Origin: a virus
DNA length: 64,000 nt
Direction: 5' to 3' (one strand)
Virus record (IMG/VR): IMGVR_UViG_3300037342_000011
Coordinates: 7,466 to 71,465 of that record
The notes beneath the pieces are model-generated. The model was given only the letters and a program-made list of their open reading frames with translations, had not been told where the DNA came from and did no database searches. A program made the position numbers and the translations under genes. Shown one piece after another: positions 7,382 through 49,950 of the stretch; within the stretch, counting starts at the first letter, position 1; each line of letters opens with the position of its first letter.

Positions 7382-7920
7382 GGGGCTGGCTCTTTAATAC
7401 GAGAATTTTGGCGAACGTTATCGCCGTATAATTCACGTTTGCGTTGTTCTCTTAGCCGAGACGCTTTCCGCATTTTTCTAATAGTAGACATTTTGAACGG
7501 TTTTCTTGGCACACCGAGTTTCTTTTTACTCAAATTGGCTTTATGTTCTTTAGAAAACTTCATCCCAATGCGCGCCAGGCTTAATTTTTTCCGTGATTCT
7601 TTTGTCCCCAAAATACCGAGAGGTCGCACAAAACCACTAAAACCTTCTCCCCCGTCCGTCTTGTTGGTCAGCTCTACCCCAGCATCACGCCAGAAACGGA
7701 TACGTTCACACTCTAATTTCAAAGATTGCGTTTCGGTTAGCCCGCTTTTAACCAAGCGAACTTCGACGCACATGCCCATGCGACACAGCTTCTGAACAAT
7801 GTTATTATAGTGAGAATTGCGTTTGAATTTGTAAGCTCGGCGCTTCTTTCCCTTACCGACCCAAAAGCAAACATCCTTGTCGGGTCTCCAGTGTTCATAG
7901 ACATAAAATATATTTTTCAC
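7378..7920 (-). CDS. GIY-YIG-like homing endonuclease with NUMOD3 repeats
   Basis: FYVYEHWRPD...FWVGKG...R; LTNKTDGGEG; FSKEHKANLS; AT-rich; GTG start overlaps upstream stop. Confidence 0.8.
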   Translation of the reverse strand: MKNIFYVYEHWRPDKDVCFWVGKGKKRRAYKFKRNSHYNNIVQKLCRMGMCVEVRLVKSGLTETQSLKLECERIRFWRDAGVELTNKTDGGEGFSGFVRPLGILGTKESRKKLSLARIGMKFSKEHKANLSKKKLGVPRKPFKMSTIRKMRKASRLREQRKRELYGDNVRQNSRIKEPAP

Positions 7921-9207: not shown

Positions 9208-9375
9208 TCATTCTGCCGCCTTTGGTTTATCTTTCCCAGCCAACCACTCTGCTCCGATTGAGTTCCACTCGTTAGGGAACGCCTCGGCAGCGAGCATTTC
9301 CTTCACCCGCGCTGCGCCAAGTTCCTCGAACCTCGCGTGGGCCGCCTCTTTGCGTTGTTCGTGGGATGTGGTCAT
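9208..9375 (-). CDS. Hypothetical 55-aa protein
   Basis: MTTSHEQRKEAAHARFEELG...; ATGA overlaps at both ends. Confidence 0.55.
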   Translation of the reverse strand: MTTSHEQRKEAAHARFEELGAARVKEMLAAEAFPNEWNSIGAEWLAGKDKPKAAE

Positions 9376-11066
9376 TCCGCCGCCTCTCTAAATTCTGCTT
9401 CAGGATTGCCACCCAAGCCGCCACCTTGACCGAAGCCGATGCCCTTCGGCATCTCCGGCTCGGGTTGCTCGGGCATTACAGTCAAGTCGAGCGATGCGTG
9501 GGGGCTGTCTTCATCCATCGCCACGCGCTCACGAACCTCGTCGGGGCCTAGCGCACCTATTTCAACCAGCACCGCGTCGGTGTCGGCGTCGATCTTGCGC
9601 ACCTCCGCCTCGCCCTTTTCGTCAAGCGACCACAAATTGACCCAATCGTAACTCAAATCTTCGTCCACCGCGCCCCAAAGGTTGATCTGGGCAAAGGCAA
9701 ATATGCGGTCGAGATTCGGCCCGAGAACTTTAGGCTGCGTGGCGTGGATGCTGTCGTAGTAGGTGCGGATGGAGCCTTCCGACGAAGCGTTCAACCCGTG
9801 AGCGTCGATGCCTAGCAACTTGACGGTCGGTGTCTTAGCCACGCTGCACATCTGCTCTTGAGACTGGGCTTGCAGCGCATCGAGACCGGCCAGTGACGCT
9901 GATACGTTTTTGAATTCTTCGGTTTCTTTATCTGTGAGAAAGAGACCTTTATTGTCTCTCATATTATTAAAGACTTCAATTCTTCGAAATAATCCGTCAC
10001 CGCCAGGCGTTAATGTCTCAGCAAGATTTGAACTAAGCTGCCAAACTGTAAACGAGTGAACTAAGTCTGAAACAGATTGGCGAGTGCGAAGCCAATTTGA
10101 AACATACGGTTTTGCCATCTGGCTCATTGACAAGCCGCCGAACGAGTACGCGGGCTTGAGCATGTCGGGTACTTTGCGCCCGATAAATGTCAAGAACCGG
10201 CTTGCGTGGACTTCCTTGCCCATGGCGAACCAGCGCTGCGGATTATACCAATCGGGTGCAAGGGGATCGTTTGATCCATACGCCGCAGGATAACTCCAGA
10301 CGGCCTCGACAGCCTGTATTCTTTTAAGGCTGCCCTTCTTAACCTTGGCCAGCGTAATCTCGTTGGTCGGTGACCCATCGCCGACCGGGGTAAGCAGCTC
10401 ATCCGGGTCGTCCAACGAATCGTCGAAATCCAGAAACAGATGTGAACGCCCCATGTAGCCATCGTATTCAACCGAATGGCAAAGCAACTCCATTACATTG
10501 AGCCGTTTGAACTCCGCTTCGAGTTCTTGAATACGCTCAGCCTTGTTTCCTTTCGAACCCTTGGCCTTTATTTTAATTCCTTTACGCGTCATTTCCGTAG
10601 CGCCAGTCTCGGAAATGACTCGATATTCCGGTCGCTGCGCAAGTTCAGCGAGGTAGGGATATCCTAAAAAAGCCTGTCCTTCAGCAAAGGCACCATATGC
10701 GCCGTAACCCCCGTAACCGCCATTTGCCAGCCAACCGCCCGCAAATACAATTTGTTGATCGAGCGCGATTGCGGCAGCCTTGGCCGAACGCTTGATATTT
10801 TCATCGTTGGCTAACGTATAATCTTTGCGACTTTCTGGGATAACGCCAGGCATGGGCTGGGCTGCCTGATAGATACGTTCCGACAAATCTCGAATACGCG
10901 CCCTTGATTGTCGCGAGAGAGCCAAGACGTCGTCGGAAATGTTTAAGGTCTTTTTGGTTGCAGTTTCCGACGCCTTCTTGGGTGCAGACACGCTGCGTTT
11001 AACTTTGCTACGCTTTAACCGCGCTTCAAGTTCCTTGACCCGCTTTTTTAATTTATTGCGTTTCAA
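9372..11066 (-). CDS. Portal protein (DUF1073 family)
   Basis: FLGYPYLAELAQRPEYR, VHASR, LKPAYSFGGLSMSQ, GLNASSEG motifs; start uncertain. Confidence 0.9.
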   Translation of the reverse strand: MKRNKLKKRVKELEARLKRSKVKRSVSAPKKASETATKKTLNISDDVLALSRQSRARIRDLSERIYQAAQPMPGVIPESRKDYTLANDENIKRSAKAAAIALDQQIVFAGGWLANGGYGGYGAYGAFAEGQAFLGYPYLAELAQRPEYRVISETGATEMTRKGIKIKAKGSKGNKAERIQELEAEFKRLNVMELLCHSVEYDGYMGRSHLFLDFDDSLDDPDELLTPVGDGSPTNEITLAKVKKGSLKRIQAVEAVWSYPAAYGSNDPLAPDWYNPQRWFAMGKEVHASRFLTFIGRKVPDMLKPAYSFGGLSMSQMAKPYVSNWLRTRQSVSDLVHSFTVWQLSSNLAETLTPGGDGLFRRIEVFNNMRDNKGLFLTDKETEEFKNVSASLAGLDALQAQSQEQMCSVAKTPTVKLLGIDAHGLNASSEGSIRTYYDSIHATQPKVLGPNLDRIFAFAQINLWGAVDEDLSYDWVNLWSLDEKGEAEVRKIDADTDAVLVEIGALGPDEVRERVAMDEDSPHASLDLTVMPEQPEPEMPKGIGFGQGGGLGGNPEAEFREAAE

Positions 11067-45748: not shown

Positions 45749-46142
45749 CAATCTTATGTTCCATGCGCTGAAGGTCTGTGCGAATTTCAGCTCTGAGCGC
45801 GGCCATACTTTCAACGACTTGCTTGATGGCTTCTCCAAAGCTGTCTCGCCGCACATAGTTGTTGGCTGCGTTAAGTTCGATGTCGGCAATTTTTTGTTTG
45901 AGAGCCATTATGGTTTCGCCAAAATCGTGCGTTGTCTTGTAAAGTTCGTGGCGAACAGTAACAAATTCGCTCCAGACCTTAGAAAATTCTTTGTTTCGCT
46001 CGGCTTCTTTGTCACTGATTAAAGTCACAACTTCGGTTTTGATATCACCGATCAGCTGCGTCATTCGTATGCTACCGGCTATGAACGCAAGTACAAGCAC
46101 AACAGTGTTAGTGCCGAACGCAATCCATAATTCTTCGCTCAC
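45732..46142 (-). CDS. Membrane-anchored coiled-coil protein (lysis region)
   Basis: N-terminal TM; YVRRDSF...IRTDLQRMEHKID. Confidence 0.7.
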   Translation of the reverse strand: MSEELWIAFGTNTVVLVLAFIAGSIRMTQLIGDIKTEVVTLISDKEAERNKEFSKVWSEFVTVRHELYKTTHDFGETIMALKQKIADIELNAANNYVRRDSFGEAIKQVVESMAALRAEIRTDLQRMEHKIDAKNA

Positions 46143-46405
46143 TGGTCACCTGACAATTGAATTTTGAGATGGTCTTCTAGTTTCTTGATGTGCCTTTCCA
46201 GCCTTCCTATTTCCTTATCAACTTGAAAGTGAAAAGCGGGCATCACCGGGTAGATATAGTCGTTCCACGTCGTCACCGCCGTCGGTATGCCGATAAACAC
46301 GCCGAACAATGCGCCGATAAAAGTTATCTTCGCGGACAGCGACATGCGCCAAAATGTGTCCAATAAGTTGCGGTGGACCGGAACCTTCGGCGGCTTCTTA
46401 GCCAT
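46139..46405 (-). CDS. Small membrane protein
   Basis: One TM helix, coupled genes. Confidence 0.6.
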   Translation of the reverse strand: MAKKPPKVPVHRNLLDTFWRMSLSAKITFIGALFGVFIGIPTAVTTWNDYIYPVMPAFHFQVDKEIGRLERHIKKLEDHLKIQLSGDQ

Positions 46406-46646
46406 GGTCAGCGTACTCGCTTGGAGTGCTTTGAACTGGCGGGGCCGGAGTCAGTTCAACTTTTAGTAACGCGACAAAATCGTCCAGAAGCCCGTTGGTG
46501 TTGAGCTTGGGGTCCTGAACCTTCAGCCACGGGCTAAGAGCGGCCATCAAACTCGGCAGCGGCGACGGCTCGGCGCTCGGCGGAAAGGCCACGCCGAAGT
46601 CGTCTTTGTGTTTCTCGGCAAACTCTATCAAGGCAAAGTAGTTCAT
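46398..46646 (-). CDS. Hypothetical protein
   Basis: GAGGG SD; ATGA overlap. Confidence 0.6.
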   Translation of the reverse strand: MNYFALIEFAEKHKDDFGVAFPPSAEPSPLPSLMAALSPWLKVQDPKLNTNGLLDDFVALLKVELTPAPPVQSTPSEYADHG

Positions 46647-46924
46647 GAGTTGCCCTCGTTCTGCGTTGTGCGGTCCATCCACGCATTAGTCTCTTCCTGC
46701 GTCATCGGCCTGGACTTGCTGATGATGTAGGCTAGAAGAGCTATAACCGCGCCCGCCCCAGGGAAGAACATATTGGCGATGTCTTCCAGTATCGTTAAAG
46801 CAGTTGGCTCTAAATCCGCGACAACTTGCTCGGCACTCATGCCCCCTATGATGCGGTCCACCACAACGGGGCCAAGAATAACCCTGGCCCCGTCTTCGTG
46901 GATGTTTCCTACTAAGTAGGGCAT
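46643..46924 (-). CDS. Hypothetical membrane-associated protein
   Basis: 93 aa; PGAGAVIALLAYII. Confidence 0.6.
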   Translation of the reverse strand: MPYLVGNIHEDGARVILGPVVVDRIIGGMSAEQVVADLEPTALTILEDIANMFFPGAGAVIALLAYIISKSRPMTQEETNAWMDRTTQNEGNS

Positions 46925-47260
46925 TTATTTGTGGTACTTGGACGCTGCCAAGAAGTGACCGGTGATCGTCACGCCGTTGACGGTAGGAAGAACGCCGCGC
47001 AACCGAGCCGACTTGTTGGATGCGATGACTGCCGTACATACCTGGTTTGCAAGCGTGCCTACCGAGGTGATCGTTCCATTGGCGTTGAGCAACGCAGCCA
47101 CCACCTGGGCGTCCGGCACGAAGTTACAAGCTGCAATGACCGCCGCCGTGACTTGCTGGGCCGTCGGAACCGTCAATGACGGCAACACGATGCCCGAGCC
47201 AGAACAAGCCGCCAGCGCGAGTGCCGCACCGGCCAGCAGCATCATTTTAATCTTCCGCAT
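46925..47260 (-). CDS. Lipoprotein (possible spanin component)
   Basis: Lipobox LAAC after hydrophobic signal; GGAG SD. Confidence 0.7.
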   Translation of the reverse strand: MRKIKMMLLAGAALALAACSGSGIVLPSLTVPTAQQVTAAVIAACNFVPDAQVVAALLNANGTITSVGTLANQVCTAVIASNKSARLRGVLPTVNGVTITGHFLAASKYHK

Positions 47261-47278: not shown

Positions 47279-49042
47279 TTAAGCGGTCAACGCCGCCACG
47301 TCACTCCGAAGTTGATCCGCGCTGAAGCCCTCTGGAGTGAGGGAGTTCCTCAACGTCTCAAGACTGATGTAAGCGATTGCTTCGTCGCAATTCGCCGTAT
47401 AATACTCCGGGGTCATGGCGTGGAGTCTACCCCACGTTACAACGATGAAATTCCCGGCGCTGTTGCGCCCAACGCACGGAACATAATGCCCCCCGTCGGT
47501 GCCGACGCCGAGGGTGACTGTCCAAGGCTTACCCGCGTTGAATTGGTCCTCCGCGTCGCTCGGTAAGCGCAGCCCCACGCCCGCAGCCCCCGTTAGGTAG
47601 GCCGCGAGCGCGAGCTGGCCTACGTCGCCAGGGAGGAGCGCAACGTAGCTGTCAATTAGATGTCGTCGCCCCAAGGCGTCCAGCACGCCGGTCTTTTGGC
47701 GATAACTAGCGGCCACCTGCATATCGGTTCCTTGGTCGCTAGTCGGGTCCGACGGGGAAAAGCCTGTGCAAGCAGCGTAATCTGAGAGCACCGACGATAC
47801 ATCGAACAGTACTCGGTTCGCTGCCTCGTGGTTGAACACCATACTCTCGTGAGCAGCGCCCGCCCAAACGCAGTTATGGACAATAATTCCGTTTGCTATA
47901 TACCATCTAGAATCAGTAGAAAGGTCATATACGTGGGTTCCAAGATACCTTTGAACGTTGATGTCAACTATGCAATCGGTCTCTACGAGGCCGGGGAAAG
48001 CATTGAAGAAATTGGAAGGAAGTTGGGGGTCAGTGGAATGACCATAGATAGACGGATGCGAAGTGCTGGCTACAATACGCGAAGGAGCAGCGCCAGTTAC
48101 GGACAAATCCATCGAGATAGACGATATGGGGATGTCAGTGCCGCAATCAAAATGTACGTTGATGGGGCTACTCTTTCTGATTCCCATCAAGCCTTTGCCA
48201 TACCAAGAAGGCATTTGGAAAAAGCTATTATTGCGGCTGGAGAAACTTTGCGCACTCAGGCTCAATCTCTTGGTTTGCGGTATGCCCACATGACTGTAAG
48301 CGAGCGACGGTCTGTAACCGCCTATGCCAATATCGCCAAGCGAGGGCGCAAGGCTTCTGAAAAATCCTTGCATAAACGCGCATGTACGATGGAAAGGACT
48401 CTTCAGCTGGCGAGTAGGGCTGATCTTTTGTTTTGCATGTGGATGGCGCAAAGAGGCATCAAGTTCACTCCTCAAAAAGCTGTCGGCCCGTACAACATCG
48501 ACTGTGCTATTGATGAACTTCTCGTCGCCGTGGAGATCAACGGCGATTGGCATTATTTTCCTGGTAAAACCGACACTGAGAGAAAGAGACGAGAATATGT
48601 CATCAACGCTGGTTGGCACATTATCGATATTAACATTGCATCCAGAGGGGTTGGAAAAAAGTGGAAGTGGCTTCGACCCGCAAGTGCCGACAAGGTAGTC
48701 ATCATGCTTGAGGAATTTCGCTCGGATAAAACCGCGCTTAGTAAGCACAGCGTGATTGGGGGTGACGGTGAGCCGCTTTCCTGAAGCAGTTTTTATTTCA
48801 ACCACCGGCCCATTGTAGGATGCTCGATAAGCGCCAGTGATATTTGACGCGCTTACGTTTGTTCCTTCGACAAGACAACATCCATATTTGTCGTTTGCCA
48901 ACATCCCCCAATCCTCGCCGACCGCGTAATGGCCGAACTCGGGCGGGGGCACCGGCAACGCGGGGGCGTTGAAATACGCGCCGAATTTAAGGCTGACCGC
49001 ATCTGGTCGAGCGGGGGCCTTTCCGAGTTTGAAGCGGTTCAT
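47279..49042 (-). CDS. Papain-like cysteine peptidase interrupted by an intein
   Basis: Spliced product about 252 aa: NDKYGC|CVWAG, DQGT, GGHYVPCVG, VTWG. Confidence 0.85.
   Translation of the reverse strand: MNRFKLGKAPARPDAVSLKFGAYFNAPALPVPPPEFGHYAVGEDWGMLANDKYGCCLVEGTNVSASNITGAYRASYNGPVVEIKTASGKRLTVTPNHAVLTKRGFIRAKFLKHDDYLVGTCGSKPLPLFSNPSGCNVNIDNVPTSVDDIFSSLSLSVGFTRKIMPIAVDLHGDEKFINSTVDVVRADSFLRSELDASLRHPHAKQKISPTRQLKSPFHRTCAFMQGFFRSLAPSLGDIGIGGYRPSLAYSHVGIPQTKRLSLSAQSFSSRNNSFFQMPSWYGKGLMGIRKSSPINVHFDCGTDIPISSISMDLSVTGAAPSRIVASTSHPSIYGHSTDPQLPSNFFNAFPGLVETDCIVDINVQRYLGTHVYDLSTDSRWYIANGIIVHNCVWAGAAHESMVFNHEAANRVLFDVSSVLSDYAACTGFSPSDPTSDQGTDMQVAASYRQKTGVLDALGRRHLIDSYVALLPGDVGQLALAAYLTGAAGVGLRLPSDAEDQFNAGKPWTVTLGVGTDGGHYVPCVGRNSAGNFIVVTWGRLHAMTPEYYTANCDEAIAYISLETLRNSLTPEGFSADQLRSDVAALTA
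47873..48877 (-). mobile_element. Class 1 intein (335 aa)
   Basis: Block A CLVEGTNV, block B LTVTPNHAVLT, block F HVYDLST...YIANGI, block G VHN followed by Cys+1. Confidence 0.93.
47933..48784 (+). CDS. Antisense-encoded homing endonuclease: 2 HTH repeats + DUF559/Vsr-like nuclease
   Basis: AGAAAGGT SD-N7-GTG; LYEAGESIEEIGRKLGVS HTH; Q..VGPYNIDCAI..LLVAVEINGDWH...GWHII. Confidence 0.85.
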   Translation: MGSKIPLNVDVNYAIGLYEAGESIEEIGRKLGVSGMTIDRRMRSAGYNTRRSSASYGQIHRDRRYGDVSAAIKMYVDGATLSDSHQAFAIPRRHLEKAIIAAGETLRTQAQSLGLRYAHMTVSERRSVTAYANIAKRGRKASEKSLHKRACTMERTLQLASRADLLFCMWMAQRGIKFTPQKAVGPYNIDCAIDELLVAVEINGDWHYFPGKTDTERKRREYVINAGWHIIDINIASRGVGKKWKWLRPASADKVVIMLEEFRSDKTALSKHSVIGGDGEPLS

Positions 49043-49281
49043 TTTGGTACTGCGGTAGCGATGACCGGGGTGGTCGCCCCCGGCACAGTCACCATGGAGT
49101 TCTCAGGAACCTTCGCCATGTTCCAATGGTCGTAGGTGCCGTAGCCTAGCACGATTGCATCGGCAATATCAGAGGCGAAGGCTGGCAGCGTGTTGCTGTC
49201 GGCGTGAAACTTCGCCGCGAGTGGCGTGAGCACCATCAGCAGAACCTTGATAATGAGGGACTTAATTTCGTCTTGGTTCAC
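49039..49281 (-). CDS. Holin-like small membrane protein
   Basis: GGGAG SD; two hydrophobic segments; follows endolysin. Confidence 0.6.
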   Translation of the reverse strand: MNQDEIKSLIIKVLLMVLTPLAAKFHADSNTLPAFASDIADAIVLGYGTYDHWNMAKVPENSMVTVPGATTPVIATAVPK

Positions 49282-49296: not shown

Positions 49297-49950
49297 TTAC
49301 AGTTTAGATTCGATTTCGCTAAGAAGCGACGGTGACGCTGGGGCGGCTTGAGCGGGGGGTGCTCCGCTCCACTCCGCCGCGAGGTTGGGGCCGGAATAGA
49401 GGTTCAAGTCCAAATTGCCGGCGGTCCCCGGCAACCGCCCGGTCTCGCTGTACTGCCACAGCCAAGGCGTCACCCAGCTTGCTTGTGCGTGGGGGGTCGG
49501 GCCGTACTGCGGCAGCCACAAACGGTGCGAGCCTAAGAAAGCGTCGGCGTGCGTTCCAAGTATGTCTTTCACCCGGTTGCCGGAGTACAGTACGAGCTTC
49601 CGGCCAAGTTTCAAATCGGCAATCTTGAGGAACTGAATGGCTTGGTCGATAGACATGTTGCTTGCCGGGTTGTCCTCAAAATCCAACGCCATAAGTGTGG
49701 AGGCGTCTGGGTTGGCGTGGCTAAAGAACTCGTCAACCTGGGCTTGAACGTCCTGGCCGGTGTTGAACGTGTAAGCCCCCCACAGCAAGCCTGCCGCGAG
49801 CGCGGCTTGGCGTCGCTCCGCATACGCGGGGTCGGCTATGTTTGCCCCTTGGGTTGCTTTATGAATGACGCCGAGAACCCCGGCGGCTTTCAAAGCCGCA
49901 AAGTCGGTGATTGTATCGCCGTGGTAGATGTCGATTACGTTTGGAGTCAC
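49297..49950 (-). CDS. Endolysin, GH25 muramidase
   Basis: VIDIYH, IHKATQG, WGAY.F, ALDFE, WLWQYS, LDLN. Confidence 0.92.
   Translation of the reverse strand: MTPNVIDIYHGDTITDFAALKAAGVLGVIHKATQGANIADPAYAERRQAALAAGLLWGAYTFNTGQDVQAQVDEFFSHANPDASTLMALDFEDNPASNMSIDQAIQFLKIADLKLGRKLVLYSGNRVKDILGTHADAFLGSHRLWLPQYGPTPHAQASWVTPWLWQYSETGRLPGTAGNLDLNLYSGPNLAAEWSGAPPAQAAPASPSLLSEIESKL

Follow-up and report, generated by a model that had tools for sequence, protein, structure and literature searches.

A class 1 intein in a putative phage peptidase gene carries a Vsr-like endonuclease gene on the complementary strand

We analysed a 64,000-nucleotide stretch of an uncultivated phage genome (IMG/VR record IMGVR_UViG_3300037342_000011, positions 7,466 to 71,465 of that record), hereafter called the window, in whose coordinates all positions are given. 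On the minus strand, a host gene at 47279..49042 runs as one 587-codon ORF without an internal stop and encodes a 587-aa precursor, and homologues of the gene were found both with and without an intein. The N-extein comprises residues 1-55 (48878..49042, minus strand) and ends in ...NDKYGC; it was delimited by the intein boundary and by intein-less alleles that are uninterrupted at this place. The C-extein comprises residues 391-587 plus the stop (47279..47872, minus strand), begins with CVWAGAAHE at Cys391, and was recognised by this cysteine, invariant in 18/18 aligned homologues, and by a phrog_19005 match at precursor residues 389-585. The intein is inserted immediately N-terminal to a family-invariant cysteine. 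Intein-less alleles of the host gene, for which the first-pass annotation had suggested a search, do exist, and they are continuous across the site (...ND..GD joined directly to CVWAGAAHE). The host product is putatively a papain-like cysteine peptidase, an assignment that we treat as a lead: we take the protein to be papain-like from motif resemblance, Peptidase_C1 is found on 25% of the members of one Atlas cluster, and one phage record carries the annotation 'cysteine protease', while a Pfam search with three intein-less host alleles returned no match. The neighbourhood is of the lysis type, with a GH25 lysozyme gene as the immediate upstream neighbour (49297-49950).

The intein occupies 47873..48877 on the minus strand and is 335 aa long, corresponding to precursor residues 56-390 with boundaries placed by script. 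Pfam Intein_splicing (PF14890) matched residues 59-390 with 47.1 bits (cut-off 35.8, E 2.8e-12), and with 48.3 bits in the genome search. All landmarks of a class 1 intein were present, namely the nucleophile C1, block B TVTPNH, block F HVYDLS and block G VHN followed by the +1 Cys. Among 13 aligned intein-bearing homologues, the N-terminal Cys56 of the precursor (13/13), the block B residues T94 and H97, and H389, N390 and C391 of the stretch HVYDLS...IIVHN plus C were invariant. The 71,465-bp phage record contains no second intein. The GC content inside the intein was 0.47-0.51, compared with 0.58-0.65 in the flanks, and AF2 gave pLDDT values of 81-97 at intein residues 1-70 and 266-335.

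The minus-strand protein had no LAGLIDADG or HNH family match in the Pfam search, and no Pfam domain was found in the host-frame intein middle. A stop-free spacer of intein residues 133-265 (48083..48481, minus strand) is predicted to be unstructured, with pLDDT <50 and a host-frame omega of ~1, and parts of residues 86-132 reached pLDDT 74-82. The first-pass annotation had described a middle of about 250 aa without either endonuclease motif; the absence of the motifs held, but the unstructured part measures ~130-200 aa. Likewise, its question whether the host-frame insert folds as a nuclease is answered by the low confidence at residues 133-265. Judging from the structural model, the host frame across the intein middle looks like filler. 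It nevertheless contains a nearly invariant motif, DFHGDE...VDVV, with G172, D173 and F176 unchanged across 13 sequences. We rejected this motif as a sign of a real host-frame domain, because it is the codon-by-codon mirror of the catalytic AVEI-G motif of a nuclease encoded on the other strand. The spacer itself lies antisense to the second helix-turn-helix (HTH) module, the helical linker and the start of the nuclease domain of that protein.

This nuclease, a putative homing endonuclease, is encoded at 47933..48784 on the plus strand by 283 codons and a stop, wholly within the intein. The plus frame stays open over 47786-48784; when started from the GTG at 47933, the ORF encodes 283 aa, and this product is identical to the recorded protein P0057. 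Alternative in-frame starts are present; the ATG at 47876 (302 aa) was rejected as the nuclease start, since homologues start at the block F His. The codons of both ORFs begin at coordinates equal to 2 mod 3, so that the two frames are in exact antisense register. Two HTH DNA-binding modules cover residues ~8-103 (47954..48241), and a Vsr/EDxHD-like nuclease domain covers residues 158-283 (48404..48781), with the catalytic-motif residues D190 at 48500-48502, E201 at 48533-48535 and H207 at 48551-48553. In the Pfam search, DUF559 matched the plus-strand protein with 23.8 bits (cut-off 20.6), MTES_1575 REase scored 29.9 bits, below its cut-off of 38.2, and several HTH families matched, all below their cut-offs; the families listed for the N-terminus were HTH, with no NUMOD among those listed. 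The AF2 model of the nuclease had a mean pLDDT of 91.3, and structure comparison found a Vsr-type nuclease fold. Foldseek alone gave weak E-values (best 2.6e-3), yet placed the right folds at the top of its ranking, and the Vsr-like fold was settled by the VIA second look and the profile search. Single-sequence search of the PDB returned no match to the nuclease, and the long helical linker together with the two HTH modules has no solved counterpart. The first-pass annotation had read a complete class 1 intein on the minus strand, a 283-codon plus-strand ORF wholly inside it in exact register, and two HTH repeats with a DUF559/Vsr-like nuclease in that ORF; all three readings are borne out, respectively, by the PF14890 match with its full set of blocks, by the coordinates, and by the DUF559 match and the fold.

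In the composite motif of such enzymes, a conserved catalytic Asp serves as metal ligand and a His as general base. Among 50 relatives, D190 was invariant and E201 and H207 were at least 90% conserved. The family profile matched 3R3P with E 5.7e-4, and in the alignment D190 and H207 fell on D196 and H213 of that construct (PMC3239194), so that the Asp and the His of EDxHD are mapped. The family is large: 1582 cluster representatives, from clusters made at 50% identity, matched the nuclease at E<=1e-3.

At both ends of the nuclease gene the same nucleotides serve both proteins. Opposite the minus-strand codons of block F (H-V-Y-D-L-S), the plus strand reads AGAAAGG...GTG, a Shine-Dalgarno (SD)-like site and the nuclease start (47918..47935). 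The His codon of block F was CAT, the antisense of ATG, in 45 of 47 distinct related loci and CAC in the other 2, and the Leu codon was CTC in 41; an SD core at -17..-5 occurred in 44/47, against 9.2% of control windows. These counts cover the loci recognised by the block F regular expression, which missed 9/30 loci in the first scan and 19/81 in the second. At the other end, codon-by-codon reading showed that block B, SGKRLTVTPNHAVLTK on the minus strand, mirrors the C-terminus of the nuclease, LSKHSVIGGDGEPLS plus the stop (48737..48784). The corresponding C-terminal motif, (V/M)-I-x-G-(D/N)-G, was present in 43/50 family members; V and M are the only residues at its first position, the restriction to be expected when a CAY His codon is read from the opposite strand. 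The present copy combines a GTG start with an AAGG core, and the family mostly has ATG with GAGG/GGAG; judged from the sequence, this difference could be a sign of lower expression or of decay that is just beginning.

A weak candidate sigma-70-like match (TGGACA-18-TACCAT) lies within the intein at 47877..47906 on the plus strand, upstream of where the nuclease starts. The promoter scan found three promoter-like sites, against 1.5 +/- 1.2 in shuffled sequences, which is not above chance, and the terminator scan was likewise not above shuffles. Since 36/41 reference ORFs of the window lie on the minus strand, transcription of the nuclease would oppose the main direction. The stretch is present in sequencing runs labelled as peat or permafrost metagenome. 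Contigs of two metatranscriptome libraries cover parts of the host gene and its neighbours; these contigs carry neither strand, ends nor level, and DNA carry-over is possible. No joint skipping the intein was seen in those run contigs, a result that is neutral on expression and on an empty allele in the samples.

The overlap takes in the whole 852-nt nuclease gene, and over ~85 codons at its two ends structured parts are encoded on both strands. Using the codon usage of the 41 reference ORFs of the window, we estimated the probability of a stop-free antisense frame at ~1.9e-4 given the nuclease amino acids, and the converse, a stop-free nuclease frame given the host frame, at ~3.9e-6. Openness alone is weak evidence, because 2/431 in-register antisense stretches in the 41 reference ORFs are at least 283 codons long. 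Conservation in relatives carries more weight.

Both frames were open, in the same register, in 17/17 intein-bearing phage loci, fetched from 18 of 117 matching records, which answers the first-pass annotation's question about stops in the plus frame of relatives. The antisense nuclease was found in 12/13 intein-seeded virus loci; conversely, among nuclease-seeded virus loci, the antisense host frame was open in 79/80 and intein N- and C-domain matches lay on the antisense strand in 78/80. One nuclease relative, L099, lies outside any intein, and a Rhizobium phage has a free-standing relative of 196 aa with tRNA genes around it. The intein-nuclease unit occurs in unrelated exteins and at differing sites (MuF at two sites, and the peptidase), and relatives were found in phages of Salmonella, Pseudomonas, Klebsiella, Vibrio and others. 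When both frames were used in tblastn, Gordonia phages were matched at the same place on opposite strands, as in Gordonia phage Vivi2 (nuclease 9316-10077, minus strand, E 3e-20; intein 9211-10161, plus strand, E 3e-15). A nuclease-strand CDS was annotated in 1/17 of the fetched intein-bearing phage records, and there only partially. With nucleases missed almost everywhere by gene callers and annotators, a long intein middle of this kind can easily be mistaken for an endonuclease domain that is degenerate or novel.

Selection was compared in the two frames by NG86 dN/dS over the same codons; the omega values are qualitative, since overlapping frames bias NG86, and the window and its relative L021 are so distant that dS between them is saturated. 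Between these two, over nuclease residues 50-250, omega was 0.11 in the nuclease frame (59% aa identity) and 1.12 in the host frame (33%). In all 15 Jersey-like pairs, the nuclease frame was under purifying selection (omega 0.06-0.41) as compared with the host frame (0.61-1.11); L017 and L018 were left out of the Jersey-like counts, here and in the next comparison, on account of too great a divergence or a different intein site. Consistently, in the exteins of six Jersey-like loci host-frame position 3 was the most variable codon position (0.42-0.48), in the intein middle it was host position 1, which equals nuclease position 3 (0.20-0.36), and the pattern reverted after the intein middle. A blastn search of the host gene against the phage collection gave no match, and a single-protein scan of viral contigs gave no near relative. 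Recent selection in this exact lineage is therefore not measurable, the nearest DNA relative having 56% nuclease identity.

Intein presence required at least four changes on a 39-row extein tree, two of them forced by well-supported branches. This was a quick tree, from which P0011, P0039 and P0041 were dropped for other insertions, and the presence/absence pattern is qualitative because the length filter excluded intein-less alleles <322 aa. The GC dip, the intein-less alleles and the patchy distribution on the tree hint at mobility. Taken together, we consider it likely that the locus holds a class 1 intein that is mobile and that its homing endonuclease is encoded separately, by a gene on the complementary strand in codon register with the intein. 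The open frames of relatives, the omega values and the folds support the corresponding proposal of the first-pass annotation, a separate antisense gene opposite a sense strand kept free of stops.

Under this proposal, the minus strand would be translated within the host precursor, and the Hint parts (intein residues ~1-70 and ~266-335) would excise the intein and ligate the exteins, with the invariant Cys at the junction. As splicing would be done by the N- and C-terminal parts, the host frame between them would need only to lack stops. The plus strand would be transcribed and yield the 283-aa protein of two HTH modules, helical linker and Vsr/EDxHD-type nuclease, which would cut the host gene of co-infecting phages where that gene has no intein; repair would then copy the whole unit in. 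Because the ribosome-binding site and start are antisense to block F and the last 16 codons are antisense to block B, the entire translation unit travels inside the intein. With its own translation signals there, the endonuclease would make the intein a self-contained mobile unit whose expression need not follow that of the host gene, and cutting would presumably be uncoupled from it. Over the 852 nt the two strands differ in constraint, protein-level selection on one against mostly a need to stay open on the other, with a double constraint at both ends.

It is also conceivable, though unlikely, that the intein is real and the antisense ORF is a relic in this phage, having driven a past invasion after which the intein became fixed, with too little time for the ORF to decay. 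The GTG and AAGG in place of the family-typical signals would fit such a course, as would the lack of a promoter above chance and of close relatives in which recent selection could be measured, and decay of this kind is predicted by the homing-cycle model in Gosselin et al. (bioRxiv 10.1101/2025.01.02.630785). However, the ORF is of full length (283 aa against a family median of 284 from the block F start), D190, E201 and H207 are intact, omega against L021 is low, model confidence is high throughout the nuclease, and intein-less alleles in the same gene family mean that targets are still available.

We regard as more improbable still that the plus-strand protein is expressed but co-opted beyond homing, as a DNA-binding regulator or as a marker-exclusion nuclease against competing phages, with the intein as its safe harbour. 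Embedding in inteins at 78/80 nuclease-seeded loci is what homing predicts and is unneeded for a general regulator, and the spread of the unit over unrelated exteins and sites and its patchy presence on the extein tree also speak against co-option, even though the HTH modules and long linker lack a solved counterpart, the nuclease fold also occurs in repair and restriction-type proteins, and L099 and the Rhizobium phage relative stand outside inteins. That the host-frame middle is instead a real, unrecognised domain, with the plus ORF a by-product of its open antisense frame, is hardly credible. The nearly invariant DFHGDE...VDVV, the intermediate pLDDT within residues 86-132 and the chance occurrence of long antisense ORFs in this genome could be cited for it; but the motif mirrors the nuclease catalytic motif, host-frame omega is ~1, residues 133-265 are predicted to be disordered and without a Pfam domain, and it is the plus-strand protein whose fold is confident, whose catalytic residues are conserved and to which 1582 clusters are homologous.

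Returning to the antisense homing endonuclease, we lean cautiously towards a broader reading of its family. The HTH-HTH-Vsr-like lineage of 1582 clusters may be essentially obligately intein-embedded and antisense. In phages of both Actinobacteria and Proteobacteria it would have evolved together with a single intein family, the two forming one two-strand unit in which block F would be codon-selected (His CAT, Leu CTC) to supply start and SD and block B would impose (V/M)IxG(D/N)G. Such a two-strand unit is not described in these terms in the accessible part of Gosselin et al. (bioRxiv 10.1101/2025.01.02.630785). If true, few conserved antisense gene overlaps known from phages would be as long (~850 nt) or as widespread. 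The published actinophage observation also extends to many phages of Gram-negative bacteria, among them cultured phages of Salmonella, Escherichia, Klebsiella and Pseudomonas that are open to direct testing.

Among known proteins, E. coli Vsr is a stand-alone T:G mismatch repair endonuclease of very-short-patch repair, without HTH modules. Its structures (PDB 1CW0, 1VSR) share 15-16% identity with the nuclease. The following comparisons draw on the accessible parts of the cited papers. I-Bth0305I, of the EDxHD family, is encoded on the sense strand in a group I intron and has NUMOD-type DNA-binding motifs (Taylor et al. 2011, PMC3239194), whereas the present nuclease has two HTH modules and lies antisense in an intein; the likeness is at profile level only (E 5.7e-4). 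In the fractured genes, a free-standing Vsr-like or GIY-YIG endonuclease gene lies between the halves of a split intein (Dassa et al. 2009, PMC2677866). These share with the present case a Vsr-like endonuclease as its own gene in intein territory, but their coding overlaps between endonuclease and intein part are short (6-69 bp, compared with 852 nt on the opposite strand here), and their host gene and intein are divided over two trans-splicing ORFs, in contrast to the uninterrupted intein frame here. Antisense LAGLIDADG endonucleases in inteins (Gorbalenya 1998; Gogarten et al. 2002, cited in bioRxiv 10.1101/2025.01.02.630785) likewise place the endonuclease ORF opposite a continuous intein frame, but the present nuclease is Vsr-like.

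The closest precedent is the report by Gosselin, Arsenault and Gogarten (bioRxiv 10.1101/2025.01.02.630785) of full inteins with an antisense VSR-like homing endonuclease in actinobacteriophages. The first-pass annotation had rightly suspected such a precedent and had overrated the novelty of an architecture that this preprint had already published. Both cases share an unsplit intein frame with the endonuclease ORF antisense to it. As far as the accessible part of the preprint goes, its host genes are DNA polymerase, minor capsid, terminase and thymidylate synthase genes, compared with a putative cysteine peptidase gene here, and the present genome differs in being that of an uncultivated phage with relatives in Salmonella, Pseudomonas, Klebsiella, Vibrio and other phages. 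In the window, moreover, the nuclease ORF overlaps intein blocks B and F, taking its C-terminus from B and its ribosome-binding site and start from F. The present locus is an additional, well-supported example of a rare published layout, and it extends the actinophage observation to a new host gene, at Cys391, the putative catalytic residue of a putative lysis-region peptidase.

The first-pass annotation had described a complete intein on the minus strand with a 283-codon ORF antisense to it in the same register, and this arrangement was borne out by the ORFs, the Pfam domain, the intein boundaries and the register. The virus record containing the window is 71,465 bp long, has direct terminal repeats and is rated complete. 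The host precursor ORF (47279-49042, minus strand, 587 aa) matched the Pfam intein splicing domain over residues 59-390 (47.1 bits; cut-off 35.8), and our script placed the 335-aa intein, the single one in the whole phage, at precursor residues 56-390 (47873-48877, minus strand), with an N-terminal Cys, block B TVTPNH, block F HVYDLS and a C-terminal VHN followed by Cys. The plus strand was free of stops over 47786-48784 and carried the nuclease ORF (47933-48784, 283 codons), which begins with GTG at 47933. In both ORFs the codons begin at coordinates congruent to 2 mod 3. Every nuclease codon therefore pairs exactly, as reverse complement, with a single intein codon, and intein residue 316-h lies opposite nuclease residue h. 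GC content was 0.47-0.51 within the intein versus 0.58-0.65 in its flanks.

The plus-strand protein matched DUF559 over the Pfam threshold, with REase_MTES_1575 and several HTH families under their cut-offs. When 1.84 billion representatives were scanned in full, 1582 clusters matched with E ≤ 1e-3, mostly 280-310 aa long and aligning end to end; an identical copy of the 283-aa sequence was already on record. The AlphaFold2 model, built on a 50-sequence alignment, reached a mean pLDDT of 91.3, and the family profile matched the structures 3HRL (1.9e-5), 3R3P (5.7e-4) and 1CW0 (6e-3), as well as the double-HTH protein 2LVS (2.3e-9). D190 and H207 aligned with D196 and H213 of the 3R3P enzyme, which the consulted part of the source paper gives as the two positions mutated for its inactivation (PMC3239194). 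Among 50 relatives, D190 was invariant and E201 and H207 were conserved in at least 90%. Sequence and model together make the plus-strand product a credible protein. The opposite reading, that the host-frame middle of the intein is itself a domain, is very unlikely. A Pfam search of the precursor found no family besides the intein splicing domain, and the AlphaFold2 intein model (22 homologues), with pLDDT of 81-97 over residues 1-70 and 88-97 over residues 270-335, fell below 50 over residues 133-265. The sole strongly conserved host-frame motif there, DLHGDEKF...VDVV, is codon by codon the mirror of the catalytic NIDCAI...VAVEINGDWH of the nuclease.

Selection was assessed from pairwise differences by codon position among six Jersey-like Salmonella and Escherichia phage loci, which carry a homologous intein and nuclease unit within a MuF-like head protein. 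At host-frame positions 1, 2 and 3, differences were 0.18, 0.11 and 0.48 in the N-extein and 0.08, 0.05 and 0.42 in the C-extein, compared with 0.36, 0.06 and 0.04 in one 30-codon window of the intein middle (from column 188 after the intein start) and 0.00, 0.02 and 0.13 in the C-terminal splicing part (window from column 288). Because the first codon position of the host frame coincides with the third of the nuclease frame, the variability pattern is flipped in the intein middle and normal again at the C-terminal splicing part. Over the same codons, NG86 dN/dS was 0.06-0.41 in the nuclease frame versus 0.61-1.11 in the host frame in 15/15 Jersey-like pairs; for the window versus L021, a locus of its own clade, nuclease residues 50-250 gave an omega of 0.11 (59% identity) against 1.12 (33% identity) in the host frame. 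All these values are to be read qualitatively because the method is built for non-overlapping genes and dS was saturated for the window and L021. The intein region of the Jersey-like loci (L002-L014) was also far less diverged than the exteins (host-frame position 3, 0.13 versus 0.42-0.48), suggesting that the intein spread recently among divergent alleles of the head protein.

The two reading frames also share signals. On the plus strand, the His codon of block F becomes the start codon of the nuclease, and the Asp-Leu-Ser codons of that block give AGAAAGG nine bases upstream of this start. The block F pattern matched 62 of 81 loci; in the 47 distinct, mutually related loci counted, the His codon was CAT (antisense ATG) in 45 and CAC in 2, the Leu codon was CTC in 41, a Shine-Dalgarno core lay at -17..-5 in 44 (9.2% of control windows), and ORFs counted from block F were 230-313 aa long. 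At the other end, block B (SGKRLTVTPNHAVLTK) is mirrored by the last 16 nuclease codons including the stop (LSKHSVIGGDGEPLS*). Of 50 family members, 43 had the resulting (V/M)IxG(D/N)G motif, which begins with V or M only, as required of a mirrored His codon. Because the loci counted are mutually related, these numbers do not stand for independent events. In the predicted structures, approximately 50 codons were confidently folded on both strands where the first HTH lies opposite the C-terminal Hint part, and approximately 35 where the nuclease C-terminus lies opposite blocks B and N4.

Tblastn matched 117 phage records with the nuclease and 124 with the precursor, from phages of Salmonella, Pseudomonas, Gordonia, Klebsiella, Escherichia, Vibrio and others. 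In 17 of the 18 matched records examined, the nuclease match was antisense to a long annotated CDS, with both frames open and an identical register; only one of the 17 had an annotation on the nuclease strand, a partial CDS. The 18th, a Rhizobium phage, encodes a free-standing 196-aa endonuclease amid tRNA genes, without the (V/M)IxG(D/N)G motif. Among precursor-seeded virus loci, 12 of 13 had the antisense nuclease and the remaining one ended at a contig edge. With one nuclease motif as sole seed, the best 80 of 214 virus loci had an open in-register antisense frame across the match in 79 cases and both intein terminal parts matched by local HMMs in 78. The other two were a locus ending at a contig edge and L099, the sole one of the 80 without an antisense intein. 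Its nuclease ORF (L099:1246-2370, plus strand, 375 open codons) stands alone directly downstream of a MuF-like gene ending ...HPNCRCCLTFKVD, with VIWGAG as a drifted form of the C-terminal mirror motif. This ORF may have become free-standing or may be what an intein left behind when it was lost. In Pseudomonas phage vB_Pae_CF74b (L010), the nuclease-strand frame was open for 676 codons, up to the first base of the locus and well past the nuclease itself, an example of the ease with which GC-rich phages keep in-register antisense frames free of stops. Of ten host proteins sampled, six were MuF-like, making the putative peptidase a minority host of the unit. Escherichia phage vB-Eco-KMB36 (L018) carries a homologous unit approximately 20 residues upstream of the Jersey-like site in the same MuF-like protein, which therefore has two insertion sites.

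In the peptidase family, 22 precursor homologues carried a same-site intein of 274-335 aa, and intein-less alleles read uninterrupted ...ND..GD|CVWAGAAHE; eight of these turned up in the DNA of virus contigs, including four whose contigs measured 68-77 kb. The shortest intein, that of P0027, has 274 aa where the others have 328-335 aa, and this copy may have lost part of its length or be decaying. On a quickly built maximum-likelihood tree of 39 exteins, its sampling biased by a length filter that left out intein-less alleles below 322 aa, intein presence required at least four changes, two forced by well-supported branches; intein-bearing P0003 was sister to intein-less P0036 (support 100). 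The intein lies directly before Cys391, which is invariant across the family, as is a GGH motif. Homologue P0011 lacks an intein at the Cys site and has a different one with an in-frame HNH_3 domain between GGHYVP and CVGRNS, adjoining the GGH motif, so two types of intein have entered the family, each at a conserved site of its own. The intein-bearing gene is directly preceded by a GH25 lysozyme gene (49297-49950, minus strand) and flanked on both sides by several small minus-strand ORFs (49039-49281 and the region 46139-47260, including 46925-47260 with a lipoprotein-like N-terminus); the neighbourhood looks like a lysis cassette, and the name papain-like peptidase is a lead only. Contigs of DNA sequencing run X3 parted from the window at 47447 and 47491, in the C-extein, leaving loose ends 40 and 66 letters long; another sample probably contains a version of the host gene from a variant strain.

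The mechanism proposed in the first-pass annotation, in which a separate antisense nuclease gene would mobilize the intein while the sense strand is kept open, is supported by the predicted fold, conservation and selection. Among the papers covered by a full-text literature search, none besides the preprint of Gosselin et al. (2025, bioRxiv) described antisense endonucleases in phage inteins, and none did so for Jersey-like phages. Judging from the consulted part of that preprint, on VSR-like endonucleases antisense within full inteins of actinobacteriophages, an antisense endonuclease within a phage intein is of a kind already known. Parts of earlier papers describe Vsr-like endonucleases adjoining split inteins (Dassa et al. 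2009, PMC2677866) and the prototype I-Bth0305I (Taylor et al. 2011, PMC3239194). Relative to these portions of the literature, our analysis adds a new extein and a range far beyond actinophages, together with frame-specific evidence of selection and a near-obligate embedding of the nuclease in inteins (78/80, best 80 of 214 loci).
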